Positions 5,416-38,261 of a DNA stretch of 64,000 nt are shown one piece after another (the stretch's first letter is position 1; each line of letters opens with the position of its first letter). A program made the position numbers and the translations under genes. The notes under the pieces are model-generated. The model ran no database searches. It saw only the letters and a list, made by a program, of their open reading frames with translations, and was not told where the DNA came from. The stretch is from an uncultured candidate division Zixibacteria bacterium (GTDB lineage: Bacteria > Zixibacteria > MSB-5A5 > GN15 > FEB-12). The stretch spans positions 832,001 to 896,000 of the forward strand of contig CAVTJJ010000004.1 of assembly GCA_963735035.1 (NCBI GenBank), given 5' to 3'.

Positions 5416-6095
5416 TCACCCTTCGACAGGCTCAGGGTGTGTAGATTGAAACCAGCTCGTCGCGGGCGGTCTCGACATCGTAAGACGGCAGTCGGCTCGT
5501 CGTACTTGCTCTTCTTCTGTCATACCTGCGGAGGCAGGTACCCAGCCAAGCTCGCAGAGCAATACTGCAGCAACATCTATGTGTTGCTCGCCATATAATA
5601 TCTTCTTGCCACAATCTCCATCACAGACCAGCCACCTTGACTGGGTTCCCGCCTTCGCGGGAATGACGAAACCTGCGGTTCTGTTTCTCAAGCACGACCA
5701 ACCACCCACACAGAGCGAGCTCTGTCCTACGAATCTGTTGTCGTTCCGGGACCCACAAGATACGGGGATGCCATGTCCTATGGGATAGGATAGTCTGCTT
5801 TCGCGTGCGATGCAATCACAAAAGCGACACTCACAAAGAAGCGGCAGGCCCGGAGGCCTGCCGATCACACACTTGGATGGCCCCGCGTAAAGCGGGGCAA
5901 GACAGACATGGAGCGGTAGTCGTACGAGTCGGCAGATGTGGGCATCTGCCGGGCACTTTTCAAAGGCGGTCGACCCCACAGCAAGCTGTGGGGTACCAAG
6001 CCTACAAGTCATGTAGGTCGGGATGCTTGTCATCCCGACATCGCGTTTGTCGGAACATCACCACGTCGAGCAGGCACAAGGGGCCCGCCCTACAA
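5416..6095. repeat. Intergenic REP-like palindrome mosaic
   Basis: cccttcgacaggctcagggt, ttcccgccttcgcgggaatgac, ggcagatgtgggcatctgcc, ccccacagcaagctgtgggg; 6013-6093 is a close copy of 2719-2800. Confidence 0.85.
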
Positions 6096-18293: not shown

Positions 18294-19327
18294 CCTAAGT
18301 TCACAAACGAAGTGCAACACCTGTTAAAGGTGTTGTCATGGAACGAACATATGCACAGATCAGTCTTGAAGAGCGGTGTGAGATTGCCCGCTTATGTGGC
18401 TCGGGGCGCTCGATTCGGCAAATTGCGGCAGCTTTGGATCGCGCGCCATCGTCCATTGCTCGGGAGATAACGCGAAATCGCAGCCGACAAAGCGGTTACC
18501 TGCCCGCCTGTGCCAACGACCAGAGCCGTGCCCGGCGTTGGACCGGCTCCAAATTGGATCGCCGTCCAGAACTGCGCGACATGGTAGTGATGGGACTATC
18601 TAATGGTTTGTCTCCGGAGTTGGTCGCGGGAAGGCTGGCCGTGGAGATGGGCCGGAAGGTGATTTCCTACGAAACGATCTACCGGTTTATCTACGCGCAG
18701 ATCGCCCGTACTAAGGATTACACTTGGCGGTACTTACTGATCCGTGGCCGAGCCAGACGTAGCTGGCGAGGGTGCAAGAGAGGTCGGTCGACGTCGTCTA
18801 TAGCCCTGCGGGGCCCTATCTCCGCGCGGCCGAAGAGCGCCAAGAGCCGGAAAACACCAGGACACTGGGAAGGTGATCTCATGAACTTCCGAATACCCGA
18901 TCAGAGCGTCCTTGTCCTTCATGAGCGGCGCTCACGCCTGATGATGGGGGTTAAGCTGCCAGCCAAAGATGCCGCCTCGGTTGCTAAGGCCATGTGCACT
19001 CTCCTGGCACCCTTGCCGCACGCGTGGCGACAGACCATCACCTTCGATAACGGCCCCGAGTTCGGCCAACACTACCAACTCCATGACCACGGTATCGAGA
19101 CCTACTTCTGTAACACCTACTCACCCTGGCAGAAAGGTGGCGTTGAAAATGGAATCGGTCGCCTCCGACGAGTACTGCCTCGCCATACCGACCTGACCAA
19201 ACTCTCGCCGAGACGGTTCGCAGACTTCTTTCAAATCTACAATAACACGCCTCGAAAATGCCTGGACTTCCTCACTCCAGCCGAGTTCTTTTGGCTCGAA
19301 CTGTTGCACTTCAAATGTGAATCCAGC
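18294..19327 (+). mobile_element. IS30-family insertion sequence, copy 1
   Basis: ~26-bp imperfect IRs cctaagttcacaaacgaagtgcaaca / gctggattcacatttgaagtgcaaca; flanking CCC duplication. Confidence 0.88.
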
Positions 19328-19336
19328 CCCGCCTGA
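18338..19336 (+). CDS. IS30-family transposase
   Basis: N-terminal HTH, GHWEGD, TITFDNGPEF, PWQKGGVEN, NNTPRKCL. Confidence 0.95.
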   Translation: MERTYAQISLEERCEIARLCGSGRSIRQIAAALDRAPSSIAREITRNRSRQSGYLPACANDQSRARRWTGSKLDRRPELRDMVVMGLSNGLSPELVAGRLAVEMGRKVISYETIYRFIYAQIARTKDYTWRYLLIRGRARRSWRGCKRGRSTSSIALRGPISARPKSAKSRKTPGHWEGDLMNFRIPDQSVLVLHERRSRLMMGVKLPAKDAASVAKAMCTLLAPLPHAWRQTITFDNGPEFGQHYQLHDHGIETYFCNTYSPWQKGGVENGIGRLRRVLPRHTDLTKLSPRRFADFFQIYNNTPRKCLDFLTPAEFFWLELLHFKCESSPA

Positions 19337-19450
19337 AGCGGGGCAAGACAGGAAGTAGACGAAGGGTACGAACACGAGTCGGCAGATGTGGACCCCGGAT
19401 CAAGTCCGGGGCAGGCTTTGCCGGGCACGTTTATACAGGAAGAGACTGAT

Positions 19451-19831
19451 ATGACAAATGCACCTGAACATTCCACCGTAGCTGTCCTGGGGGCATCGCC
19501 GAAGGAAGACCGCTATTCATTCAAGGCGGTGCGCATGCTCAAAGAACATCACCACCGCCCGATCCCAGTCCATCCGGCCGGGCATACGGTCGATGGCATC
19601 CCCGGCTTGAAATCGCTCGAGGATATCCGGGTGCCCGTGCACACGGTCACCTGCTATGTCAACGCCGCGATATCAGACGGAGAGTTTGACCGGATCGTCG
19701 CGCTCAAGCCACAGCGGGTGATATTCAATCCCGGCGCCGAGAACGAGAATCTGGCGGTGCGTCTTGAAGCTACCGGAATCGAAGTGGTCCGGGCCTGTAC
19801 TCTGGTGATGTTGCGCACCGGGCAGTTCTGA
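19451..19831 (+). CDS. CoA-binding protein (YccU-like)
   Basis: VAVLGAS, RVIFNPGAEN, ACTLVML. Confidence 0.9.
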   Translation: MTNAPEHSTVAVLGASPKEDRYSFKAVRMLKEHHHRPIPVHPAGHTVDGIPGLKSLEDIRVPVHTVTCYVNAAISDGEFDRIVALKPQRVIFNPGAENENLAVRLEATGIEVVRACTLVMLRTGQF

Positions 19832-19877
19832 GGTGATCACTTTCTGGTGGCCCACCCGCTGCTATGTACTGTGTCAA

Positions 19878-20070
19878 GGGCTTTCTGTTCAGGCATAGGA
19901 CTCGAACCAGTCTGCTATTCGTGGTCGCTGACTGGCAGCGCCACAGGCAATGTATCCGCTCGTGACCTGGCGAGGCAGGCAGACTTGCGGACGTGGTCTC
20001 GGTTGGCCCGAGCCACAGCGGGTGGGTCGCTGTTCTCGCGTTAGCTTGGTACGGTTCCGACTCCTTGGTT
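19878..20070 (-). ncRNA. Putative bridge/seek guide RNA of the IS110 element (boundaries approximate)
   Basis: Two parallel 24-nt GTGG...CCAC stems flanked by segments matching the target (20017-26, 19984-90) and the donor junction (19912-18). Confidence 0.8.
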
Positions 20071-20073
20071 ATC

Positions 20074-21132
20074 TTAGGCGGCCGCACACGGCTCATAGGC
20101 AACGTTATCAAGCAGAACCCGCCTGACTGCCAAGACCAGTCGTCGAGCTACCGCCACTATGGCTCGTTTGCCGCCGGCACGTTGCTTGATCCGGTTATAG
20201 ACCAGTTGTAAGTGTGGGTCCTTCCGAACGGCAATCCAGGACGATTCCACTAACAAGCCCCGAAGATAGCTGTTGCCCGTGCCGGTAATCCGACCCATCC
20301 GGACATGATCACCGCTGGAATACTGCGAAGGTGTCAGTCCCACATAAGCCGCCAATTGCTCAGCCCGTCCAAAACGACCGACCTCATGCAATTCCAACAG
20401 CAGAGCCATCGCCGTAATAACCCCTATGCCGGGAACGCTACTTAACAGCCGAACTCGATCACGATACTGTGGCAGTCGTGACAACTCCCGCAACAGTCGT
20501 GTCTGCAACGCCAGCTGGTTACTTACCAGATCGTACATCTCCAACAACCGCTCGTAGCTCGCCTGAGCCCAGACATCTGCCAAACACACCTGTCTCAGAC
20601 GCTCTAATAACGGACCGGTCCACCGACCCGTCCCACTGCACACTGAAATACCATATAAGGCCAACTCCGATTTGATCCGACTCTGAAGACGTACCCGATC
20701 TTGAACCAATTGACGACGACGACGTAAGACCTCTCGGTGACCCCGCTGACTCTCATCCGGAACCCAGACCTTCTTCAACAACCCTAACGACAGCAACCAG
20801 GCCAGCTTCCGGCTATCCCGCTTGTCCGTCTTCACCCGATTACCGTAGGCCATCGGCACCAAGCTCGGCGGCGTTACTACGCACTGACCACCCCACGCTA
20901 CCACACAGTCGTGCAGCCAAAAACCAGAAAAACCCGCCTCGTAAACCACGGACACACACCCAGGATCATACCGATCCAGCAAACACCGCAAAGACGCCCA
21001 ATCCCCGTTAATGCTGCCACAGAACAGTTCCACTTCTAACGTCCTCACCGTGACAAACCACTGACGCTTGTGAACATCCACGCCAACAAAAACAGCACTT
21101 CCCACTTCCGCTCCAACTTCGTACCTTCTCAT
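20074..21132 (-). CDS. IS110-family recombinase/transposase
   Basis: DEDD: VGVDVHK, YEAG, KTDKRDS; C-terminal GLTPSQYSSG, AVARRL. Confidence 0.96.
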   Translation of the reverse strand: MRRYEVGAEVGSAVFVGVDVHKRQWFVTVRTLEVELFCGSINGDWASLRCLLDRYDPGCVSVVYEAGFSGFWLHDCVVAWGGQCVVTPPSLVPMAYGNRVKTDKRDSRKLAWLLSLGLLKKVWVPDESQRGHREVLRRRRQLVQDRVRLQSRIKSELALYGISVCSGTGRWTGPLLERLRQVCLADVWAQASYERLLEMYDLVSNQLALQTRLLRELSRLPQYRDRVRLLSSVPGIGVITAMALLLELHEVGRFGRAEQLAAYVGLTPSQYSSGDHVRMGRITGTGNSYLRGLLVESSWIAVRKDPHLQLVYNRIKQRAGGKRAIVAVARRLVLAVRRVLLDNVAYEPCAAA

Positions 21133-21324
21133 CTCGAGCCTCCTGTTCTAAGGATTTATCGTTGTCTTCAGACCACGATACGATACCTTGTCCGAACAGA
21201 GGCTCAAATCACGAACAGTATCATAGTTACTTGCGGGTGGGGTGAGGTTTCACTTGCATAGAACGCACAGCAAGCTGTGGGGTACCAGGCATTTCATTGC
21301 GAATGGGGACGCATCCTCGTCCGC

Positions 21325-22035
21325 CTAGGTCTCGTCGTGATCCAGCCAGGTTAGCTTGGACATTTTGGCCTTGATGGCCACCGTCGCGGTGTCGACCATT
21401 TCTTCCACATCCATAAGGGCGGAGTTGAGAATCAGGTCGTAGTGATGCGGATCGTCGATGTTGTGGTTAAACAAATGCGCGACAAACTTGCGCCGGTCGG
21501 CATCAGATGCTTCGATCGACCGCTCGGCTTCCACCGGAGAAATCTGTTTGTACTTGACCAGGTTCTCGATCCGCTTGTCACGCGGGCAAACCACGCGAAG
21601 GTGAAAACCGCGCTGCGGTCCGAGGATGAAACTCCCGCCGCGTCCCATCAGCACCACGCCGCCGAGCTGCGACATCGACAGCACCGTTTGGCACAGGTGC
21701 TGGCCGTAGTCGCTGTAGTCGACCGATTGTCCCGTGAGAATTGTCTCGGCGAGTAGTTCGATCCGTCCGCGAAAGCGATCGTCGATCGATTCGATAATTC
21801 GTTTGCGAAGCCCCGATGATCGGCAGATCATGTCGATGGCTTCCCGATGCAGGCGCTGATAGCCGAGGCGTGAAGCGAGGCGCGATCCGAAATAGGAACC
21901 GCGACTGCCGGTCTGACGGCTGACCGTAATAATCGGCGCCGGATGAGGGCGACCCTGGATGGCCGGTTCGGTCTCTTTCTTCTCAAGTTCCCACTTGAGA
22001 AGCTGTCGATTTATGATGGCTTCTATCGAGGTCAT
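21325..22035 (-). CDS. Cytidylate kinase-like family protein
   Basis: IITVSRQTGSRG, VLMGRGG, SDADRRKF, YDLILNS. Confidence 0.88.
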   Translation of the reverse strand: MTSIEAIINRQLLKWELEKKETEPAIQGRPHPAPIITVSRQTGSRGSYFGSRLASRLGYQRLHREAIDMICRSSGLRKRIIESIDDRFRGRIELLAETILTGQSVDYSDYGQHLCQTVLSMSQLGGVVLMGRGGSFILGPQRGFHLRVVCPRDKRIENLVKYKQISPVEAERSIEASDADRRKFVAHLFNHNIDDPHHYDLILNSALMDVEEMVDTATVAIKAKMSKLTWLDHDET

Positions 22036-38109: not shown

Positions 38110-38261
38110 GGCAATGGAGCGGGGCGCTGAGGATGGGTGCGGGAATGACGATGGACGGGCCCTATTGCCGAATCTAATCCCACCGCAAGCGGTGGGGCGC
38201 CCGAGCTTGTAGGACCGTCAGAGACTACAATGATGGTCAATGTAGGGAAGAGAGGATTGAA

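Follow-up and report, generated by a model that had tools for sequence, protein, structure and literature searches.

An IS1111-type insertion sequence in a Zixibacteria genome and its predicted guide RNA for a hairpin repeat

The stretch of DNA analysed here (the window, 64,000 nucleotides [nt]) comes from an uncultured candidate division Zixibacteria bacterium (GenBank assembly GCA_963735035.1, contig CAVTJJ010000004.1, positions 832,001 to 896,000 of the forward strand). Between two convergent genes it holds an insertion sequence (IS) of the IS110 family at 19859-21231. The element carries a transposase gene on the minus strand and, downstream of that gene, a non-coding region in which an earlier note, made from the letters alone, had read a two-loop guide RNA directed at a hairpin repeat. 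We followed up this proposal in the whole genome (3.6 Mb, 6 contigs) and among related elements. Our analysis indicates that the element is very probably an IS1111-type member of the IS110 family, active or recently active, which carries its own guide RNA for its hairpin target.

The element, its copies and its transposase

The IS body lies between two copies of a core dinucleotide that reads CT on the plus strand and AG in the transposase and RNA sense, which is the minus strand of the window. On the plus strand, 19851-19869 reads ggtggcccacccg-CT-gctatgtac, so that the left junction is cccacccg-CT, and 21222-21241 reads catagtta-CT-tgcgggtggg, with CT-tgcgggtggg as the right junction. Excising the element in silico gives cccacccgCTtgcgggtggg, in agreement with the earlier note, according to which CT stands at both junctions and removal of the element restores a hairpin. 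The features that define the insertion are as follows; end and flank names follow the transposase frame.

19851..19858, plus strand: left half of the target hairpin (cccacccg), the right flank; identical at all five full copies
19859..19860, plus strand: core dinucleotide CT (AG in the transposase sense) at the right-end junction; seen at all five full copies
19861..21229, minus strand: IS body between the core copies, from copy comparison
20074..21132, minus strand: transposase gene, 352 amino acids, with DEDD RuvC-like and Tnp domains, from the open reading frame, Pfam/NCBIfam and structure comparison
21230..21231, plus strand: core dinucleotide CT at the left-end junction; seen at all five full copies
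21232..21241, plus strand: right half of the target hairpin (tgcgggtggg), the left flank; identical at all five full copies

The genome contains five full copies of the element and one diverged copy broken by a contig end. All five full copies have identical flanks (ggtggCCCACCCG-CT and CT-TGCGGGTGGG), a single orientation and CT at both junctions; insertion is site-specific, with the core dinucleotide at each junction and no target duplication beyond it. Four of the copies are identical over 1371 bp, while the window copy differs at three positions: it has two extra bases, one at 19978, which falls in RNA stem P2 (described below), and one at 21135, and it has T in place of C at 21156. Its body measures 1369 bp, against 1367 bp in the other four. 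The extra base at 21135 falls between the ribosome-binding site and the ATG. Contigs from two metagenome runs lack the base at 19978 and have the four-copy form. When the contigs of four DNA runs were compared with 19700-21400, only short fragments were found, with no joints and no contig spanning an empty site.

The transposase matched PF01548 (E = 1.4e-12) and PF02371 (E = 2.4e-25), and scored 226.7 bits against the NCBIfam model NF033542 (“IS110 family RNA-guided transposase”), whose cut-off is 140, which confirms the family named in the earlier note. Among solved structures, the ISCro4 and IS621 transposases were matched (E about 1e-11), with detectable similarity confined to the C-terminal Tnp domain. 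At S273-G274, the SG motif aligned with that of ISCro4, and in a separate aligned segment (domain 1), not significant by itself, KTDKRDS aligned weakly with KTDAVDA of ISCro4. D19, E65, D103, D106, S273 and G274 are invariant relative to a 66%-identical relative. We infer that D19, E65, D103, D106 and S273 correspond to D11, E60, D102, D105 and S241 of IS621.

The assignment to the IS1111 type, with the RNA located 3' of the gene, is also upheld. The non-coding region downstream of the transposase (213 nt, 19861-20073) is longer than the upstream region (97 nt, 21133-21229). The GL-P----S(t)G motif, described as a feature of the IS1111 group (PMC11187229), is present in the translation as VGLTPSQYSSGD. 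Together with the subterminal inverted repeats and the order of the guides described below, these sequence features place the element in the IS1111 group, and every feature tested agreed. The protein itself is distant in sequence from those of the reference collections searched. In the plasmid collection, the best listed match was 36% identical over 88% of the query, and the matches covering most of the query, at most 36% identical, are named just “IS110 family” or “IS110-like”; the best locus of the species-representative genome scan was 45% identical.

Target guides and the hairpin repeat

Each of the minus-strand segments that had been singled out in the earlier note was found in place. Read on the minus strand, CCCACCCGCT at 20026-20017 is followed by a 24-nt hairpin (20016-19993), GT and CCGCAAG (19990-19984). 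A second 24-nt hairpin (19944-19921) is followed by GA and ATAGCAG (19918-19912). The first of these arrangements constitutes the predicted target loop, with two guides:

20017..20026, minus strand: 5' target guide CCCACCCGCU, pairing with the transposase-sense strand of the core and right flank; fits at 10 of 10 positions and covaries in relatives
19984..19990, minus strand: 3' target guide CCGCAAG, equal to the left flank plus core and pairing with the opposite strand; fits at 7 of 7 positions and covaries in relatives

The 10-nt segment is complementary to the core and eight bases of the right-end flank on the transposase-sense strand. The 7-nt segment is identical to that strand over five bases of the left-end flank and the core, and hence pairs with the opposite strand. 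The match to the top strand therefore lies 5' of the match to the bottom strand. Every IS1111 seekRNA tested is reported to have this order, which is opposite to that of the IS110 type (PMC11187229). The survey of bridge RNAs by Durrant et al. (PMC11208160) agrees with the present element both in this order and in the downstream position of the RNA. When complementary words of at least 6 nt were sought between the 213-nt 3' region and a 42-nt reconstructed target, five matches were obtained: the 10-mer, a 9-mer formed by the same segment with the other strand of the near-palindrome, the CCGCAAG 7-mer, an unrelated 7-mer in the private flank of this copy, and one 6-mer.

Related elements allowed the guides to be compared with their targets. 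We collected one locus from a genome of the same order (L063, 66% protein identity) and twelve metagenome loci (55-90%). They share a common RNA layout and differ in guide letters and in flanks. Their targets are diverse (CGGGTGGG, CGGTGGGG, CTGTGGGC, ACCTGAC., ACCCTCC.), and relatives with different targets carry different guides; the same guides standing beside different targets, which would have spoken against the proposal, were looked for in this set and not found. The fit of the 5' guide to the element's own flank, over its eight non-core bases and counting Watson-Crick pairs only, was distributed as follows:

8 of 8: the window element, L075 and L084
7 of 8: L076, L078, L079 and L083
6 of 8: L081, L082 and L077 (8 in L077 if G-U pairs are counted)
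3 of 8: L063 (7 on skipping a 3-base CAG repeat at the junction)

For the 3' guide, with five non-core bases, the fit was 5 in five elements, 4 in another five and 3 in L063. Across nine non-redundant elements, the guides agreed with the flanks of their own element at 98 of 117 non-core positions. When the flanks were permuted among elements, 63.3 +/- 8.2 positions fitted, and 2 of 100000 permutations reached 98. This set leaves out L082 and L084 (whose guides are the same as those of L081 and L083), L085 and L086 (right flank or RNA broken by a contig end) and L080 (right flank ending after 3 bases). Thus, two guides track the flanking target across relatives, as is required of a bridge RNA or seekRNA, and the target loop can be read as a guide, as the earlier note had proposed; its two stems, P2 and P3, covary as well.

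Two details of the junctions were also noted. The right junction of L063 (about 1262-1290 on the minus strand of the locus) reads ...catagcAGCAGCcatgggg, where a 3-base repeat unit was apparently gained. L076 and L081/L082, which represent two lineages, have G at the last guide position, and their junctions are still AG. Of 12 related elements, 11 have AG at each junction, the exception being L080, whose right-end junction reads GG.

These data bear on two explanations that dispense with a guide. The first is chance complementarity in a GC-rich, repeat-rich genome. Short words do recur here, since 6-nt words common to the RNA region and the element's ends occur at chance level. Against chance stand the occurrence of a 10-mer and two 7-mers at equivalent places in two hairpin scaffolds, the target shared by all five copies, the permutation result and the pair counts of the stems (below), and we regard this explanation as effectively refuted. 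The second is that the 3' end preserves a captured hairpin target as a relic at the DNA level, with target choice made by the protein or by DNA-DNA pairing as in IS200/IS605. A hairpin-like sequence inside the element would be unsurprising, as the target is a near-palindromic repeat with many variants in the genome. However, the matching segments are split by a conserved hairpin, address opposite strands and overlap at the core, which is unlike a captured repeat. They also track the flanks in the groups with ACCTGAC. and ACCCTCC. targets; these targets are quite different, and the elements' own flanks are still matched. Moreover, the surrounding stems show compensatory changes typical of RNA, and the family is RNA-guided by experiment. 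We therefore consider a DNA relic very unlikely, and favor the reading of the segments as RNA guides.

The target belongs to a family of hairpins. A strict search found 129 hairpins of the form CCCAY...RTGGG in the genome, grouped in few sequence variants, the commonest being CCCACAGC(AA/TT)GCTGTGGG (40 copies) and CCCACCGC(AA/TT)GCGGTGGG (17 copies). The earlier note had pointed to related hairpins near 38178 and 62955; CCCACCGCAAGCGGTGGG was indeed found at 38179 and 62955, and both sites are among the 129. A further example stands at window position 5975. CAGCA-AG-CTGTGGGG is a sister hairpin of the target. Neither the reconstructed site CCCACCCGCTTGCGGGTGGG, a 20-mer, nor the 15-base site specified by the guides, CCCACCCG-CT-TGCGG, has an unoccupied perfect copy anywhere in the genome, so that all perfect targets are already occupied. 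Sites with one or two mismatches came to 26 rows, corresponding to 25 distinct sites, and all of them are unoccupied. The CCCACAGC..GCTGTGGG and CCCACCGC..GCGGTGGG hairpins are the cognate targets for the guides of the relatives L079/L076 and L075/L081. Those elements are absent from this genome, and the resident element aims at a rare variant that is now saturated.

The earlier note had called the target a repetitive extragenic palindrome (REP). The part of this claim that concerns a repeat family holds: the target is a short palindromic repeat in many copies, and its position at the window site is extragenic. An association with the Y1 transposase (REP-associated tyrosine transposase, RAYT) genes was not seen at the loci checked. 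The genome has six matches to PF01797, the Y1 transposase family (C4:1466644, C3:433887, C3:865329, C6:22391, C3:165272 and C4:8010), and the hairpin brackets the gene at none of the four best loci, one locus having a single copy about 800 bp away. For comparison, IS621 is reportedly targeted to a REP-type hairpin, to judge from the title of a 2003 paper by Choi et al.

Structure of the predicted RNA and its donor loop

The stems and donor-loop segments of the predicted RNA are as follows, all on the minus strand:

19897..20057: bridge/seek RNA region, about 161 nt, predicted; extent from the consensus fold and pair counts
20053..20057: 5' strand of P1, GAACC, pairing with GGUUC at 19904-19908; a tentative helix of five pairs, one of them changed on both sides
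20029..20039: 5' strand of P2, the outer stem of the target loop (GCGAG..CAGC); 6 of 11 pairs compensatory
19993..20016: P3, the inner hairpin of the target loop (GUGG, 5 bp, loop, 5 bp, A, CCAC), from folding; stem base conserved
19970..19980: 3' strand of P2, with the extra base 19978 in the window copy, from copy comparison and folds
19960..19968: 5' strand of P5, the outer stem of the donor loop, pairing with 19897-19905, from cognate duplex energies
19945..19959: GCGGAUACAUUGCCU, on the 5' side of the donor loop, which may be a weak guide for the left end; fits at 5 of 10 ungapped positions and hardly varies among relatives
19921..19944: P4, the inner donor-loop hairpin, with the same build as P3, from folding; 4 of 9 pairs compensatory
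19912..19918: 3' donor guide AUAGCAG, equal to the last five right-end bases plus core; fits at 7 of 7 positions and is invariant in 11 of 11 aligned RNAs

Folded alone, P3 gave -14.2 kcal/mol (0 of 200 shuffles as good) and P4 gave -12.0 kcal/mol (5 of 200). For the whole 213-nt 3' region folded by itself, the signal was weak (z = -1.45; 15 of 200 shuffles did as well). The comparison of relatives was more informative. From an alignment of 11 downstream regions, RNAalifold, unguided, predicted four helices (P1 GAACC/GGUUC, P2, P3 and P4 GUGG...A-CCAC), with 12 of 31 pairs compensatory. Counted over 29 pairs, 96.6% of the cells were standard pairs, against 85.8 +/- 1.1% in shuffled alignments (0 of 500 as high), and pairing dropped to 31-49% when the partner was slid. 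Both sides had changed in 12 of these 29 pairs. P5 (19968-19960 with 19905-19897), which closes the donor loop, was left unaligned by MAFFT and was assessed by duplex energies in eight non-redundant RNAs, with L075, L076 and L078 dropped from the 11 as near-duplicates. The cognate duplexes sum to -84.9 kcal/mol, against -53.3 +/- 6.9 kcal/mol for permuted partners, and only the identity permutation, 1 of 40320, reached this value. With P2/P3 and P5/P4, each pair of guides lies in an internal loop, as in IS621. A nested model with P1 instead puts the donor-matching bases in a multi-loop, which is the picture of Durrant et al., who describe the donor-matching bases of many IS1111 RNAs in this position (PMC11208160).

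The target loop in its four-copy version folded as expected (-30.7 kcal/mol, z = -3.49, 0 of 200 shuffles), whereas the loop of the window copy gave -27.6 kcal/mol (z = -2.06), and its best fold partly hides the guide.

The earlier note had described duplicated loop scaffolds of equal length. This applies to the present element and its 90%-identical relative, but not to other relatives, in which the target hairpin is longer or the donor hairpin contains a large insert. L085 (1210-1445) has an insert of about 45 nt in the P4 loop and retains the GUGG...CCAC base and AUAGCAG. Among 69 distant loci with enough downstream DNA, the scaffold pattern GUGG...CCACG was matched in 6, and this set was not used further. 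Two metagenome loci of about 35-37% protein identity, L088 and L096, have, downstream of the gene, a GUGG-stem-A-CCAC hairpin with UA-AUGGAAG after it, which suggests that the donor-type scaffold predates the clade studied here.

The donor loop was borne out in part. AUAGCAG starts two bases past CCAC, in the register of the 3' target guide, and corresponds to the core together with the right end. Within the clade, the right end hardly varies, with one mismatch in L078 and a different junction in L080. Because the guide and the right end are (nearly) invariant, the match is a positional result and not one of covariation. On the 5' side, a contiguous guide for the left end was searched for in the whole 3' region and none was found, only 6-mers at chance level; no complementary word of at least 6 nt was found between the 5' donor side and the terminal bases of the left end. 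The earlier note's own caveat, that the left donor guide matches little beyond the core, therefore stands. L081/L082 have TCAC instead of TAAC at the left end, together with one changed base in the 5' donor segment of the RNA. A bulged pairing with the left end (UUA/UUG with TAA, CU with AG) is possible but speculative.

These observations are relevant to a narrower alternative, in which the first loop alone would guide, as in a seekRNA in the narrow sense. The second hairpin and AUAGCAG would then be a scaffold for protein binding or processing, and the ends would be read mainly by the transposase through the inverted repeats. In ISEc11, a seekRNA of 70-100 nt containing only target-matching regions is reported to be sufficient for transposition, and the account of that element leaves the role of the longer RNA open (PMC11187229). 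The poor 5' donor guide and the lack of covariation between donor loop and ends agree with this alternative, as do the inverted repeats, which covary between the two ends in the way expected for reading by a protein or through DNA structure. On the other hand, AUAGCAG equals the right end plus core in the exact register of the 3' target guide, and the donor hairpin and P5 are kept by compensatory change. In addition, donor-matching nucleotides are described in predicted IS1111 bridge RNAs (Durrant et al., PMC11208160). We consider guiding by the first loop alone improbable, and prefer an RNA with both a target loop and a donor loop.

Several points weigh against our assignment and have to be set beside it. 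The permutation test of the guides ignores relatedness, and several of the targets are sister hairpins. In L063, the guide agrees with the element's right flank at 3 of 8 positions, and at 7 of 8 only if the CAG repeat is skipped; in L081/L082, it agrees at 6 of 8; and the guide of L076 fits the flank of L079 (8) better than its own (7). In L076 and L081/L082, the 5' target guide has G, not U, opposite the first core base (the A of AG). With regard to the donor loop, the match of AUAGCAG rests on a single positional coincidence, since both this guide and the right end are invariant, and a right-end base of L078 mismatches the guide. Of the ten bases that precede P4, five match the left end without gaps, and of several pairing registers tried, none makes the left-end and RNA changes of L081/L082 compensatory. 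As to structure, P1 crosses P5 and shares two bases with it in this element, so that the two cannot both be fully formed; P1 would therefore be either a pseudoknot or an alternative fold, with one covarying pair. The RNA of the window copy may be impaired, because it has an extra base in P2 and a weaker fold than the four-copy version. Finally, an Rfam scan of 19000-22000 at E <= 1 returned no family, and none of the sequencing runs listed is recorded as RNA.

A further possibility is that the clade has an unusually regular IS1111 bridge RNA. Its two internal loops would be simple and symmetric, measuring 12 x 12 nt and 15 x 15 nt in the four-copy version, and would be built on one duplicated scaffold like those of IS621, with an inverted strand logic and with a P1 pseudoknot that links the donor loop and the 5' leader. 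Bulged pairing (AUA-N-N-UUAC-N-U against TAT-C-AATG-A) would serve to read the left end, or else the protein would read it via the inverted repeat. We hold this more elaborate model as tentative and rather doubtful. If true, it would offer a compact, easily re-programmed IS1111 scaffold and a natural case in which the RNA reads one donor end and the protein the other.

Element ends, the proposed cycle and known systems

The ends of the element, on the minus strand, carry the following features:

19862..19872: right subterminal inverted repeat ACAGTACATAG, one base from the end, from comparison of 12 elements
19872..19877: TTGACA, the -35 half of a promoter that would form only when the ends are joined in a circle, from conserved hexamers and spacing
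21215..21226: left subterminal inverted repeat CTATGATACTGT, three bases from the end, also seen in relatives; it contains the -10 half TATGAT (21225-21220)
21128..21215: 5' leader hairpin, in which the start codon and the ribosome-binding site are buried (-34.4 kcal/mol, z = -3.87, 1 of 200 shuffles)

CTATG(A)TACTGT is located three bases in at the left end and one base in at the right end. All 12 related elements compared have an inverted repeat (about 9-18 aligned bases), whose sequence changes in step at the two ends. This is the arrangement of the IS1111 group, in which subterminal inverted repeats of 7-17 bp have short terminal extensions. When the ends are joined with one core between them, TTGACA (19877-19872) comes to lie 17 nt upstream of TATGAT (21225-21220), and TTGAC(A/T), 17 nt and TATGNN were found across the junction in all 12 elements. 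In the integrated element, neither a sigma-70-like site nor a terminator-like site was found. A conserved junction promoter without such a site in the integrated form fits the published model, in which the junction promoter drives the transposase mRNA and the RNA behind it, followed by processing (PMC11187229, PMC12288879).

The stem of the leader hairpin, about 15 bp, is formed by UUUGAGCCUCUGUUC and GAACAGGAGGCUCGAG. GAGCCUC and GGAGGCUC recur in relatives, and L083 apparently has compensatory changes. From its predicted fold, the hairpin looks like translational control of the transposase.

These features suggest the following cycle. The element would excise as a circle, in which the right and left ends, joined via a single core dinucleotide, would create a strong promoter (TTGACA, 17 nt, TATGAT). 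This promoter would transcribe the transposase gene plus the structured RNA of about 160 nt behind it. In the first internal loop, the 10-nt segment would pair with one strand of the target (core and eight bases) and the 7-nt segment with the other (five bases and core). The second loop, on the same GUGG...A-CCAC hairpin, has a 7-nt segment matching the right end and core and probably holds the donor junction. The DEDD/serine recombinase would then exchange strands at the core. Production of the RNA and its binding by the transposase, the circle intermediate and the chemistry of strand exchange would follow here by analogy with the work on ISEc11, ISPa11, ISKpn4 and IS621.

The closest counterparts are ISEc11, ISPa11, ISKpn4 and ISPst6 (Siddiquee et al. 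2024, PMC11187229). As described there, these elements likewise have a long non-coding region downstream of the transposase, subterminal inverted repeats with short terminal extensions, the GL-P----SG motif, a circle-junction promoter and natural retargeting among relatives. In contrast to these seekRNA elements, the window element is known from sequence alone, its GUGG...A-CCAC scaffold is restricted to a small clade, and its protein has no close relative in the reference collections (36% for plasmids and 45% for the genome-scan locus, among the listed matches).

IS621 (Durrant et al. 2024, PMC11208160; Hiraizumi et al. 2024, PMC11208158) is described with two internal loops, each bounded by an outer stem and an inner hairpin and holding a guide for either DNA strand, overlap of the guides on a CT/AG core, a DEDD and serine recombinase, a junction promoter and a REP-type hairpin target, all as proposed here. 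It differs in that its RNA lies upstream of the gene, in the left end, whereas that of the window element lies downstream. The strand-specific order of the guides is reversed relative to the transposase strand, with CT on the opposite strand, and sequence similarity can be detected in the C-terminal Tnp domain alone (E = 1.5e-11). The IS110 group, to which IS621 belongs, is reported to have inverted repeats of 2-3 bp (PMC11208160), in contrast to the long repeats found here, and the 5' donor guide of the window element is unconvincing in comparison with IS621. The IS621-like bridge RNA layout put forward in the earlier note is correct in its geometry as read from the plus strand. That reading hid an inversion, however, since in the transposase frame the order of the guides is reversed, as published for IS1111 (PMC11187229).

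ISPpu9 and ISPpu10 of Pseudomonas putida (Pares-Guillen et al. 2025, PMC12288879) are further multi-copy IS110-family elements, described as inserting at one position of a REP hairpin, where an AG of the element recombines with an AG of the target; ISPpu10 has a strong hybrid promoter at its junction. In that account, ISPpu9 differs in using a native promoter of its own and in carrying additional small-RNA modules (Asr9, and also Ssr9, which is a mobile unit by itself), whereas no solo copy of the RNA region was found in the present genome outside the five elements, and the integrated copy has no sigma-70-like promoter.

RNA-guided recombinases of the IS110 and IS1111 type are under development for genome writing, and mechanistic work has dealt mostly with IS621 of the IS110 group. 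The mechanism, the position of the RNA, REP-type targets, the junction promoter and natural retargeting have been in print since 2024, and the present element is a clean new example and not a new mechanism. It provides an IS1111-type case with exact ends and both target guides readable from the sequence, and a naturally retargeted series of relatives that follows the sister variants of one hairpin repeat. Existing knowledge is unchanged by it; it is useful for comparing the ways in which IS1111 RNAs read the donor.

At a distance of about 500 bp, 18338-19336 on the plus strand encodes a 332-amino-acid open reading frame with HTH_38 and rve (integrase core) domains. We take this to be the IS30-type domain pair, and the gene is presumably part of another insertion sequence.

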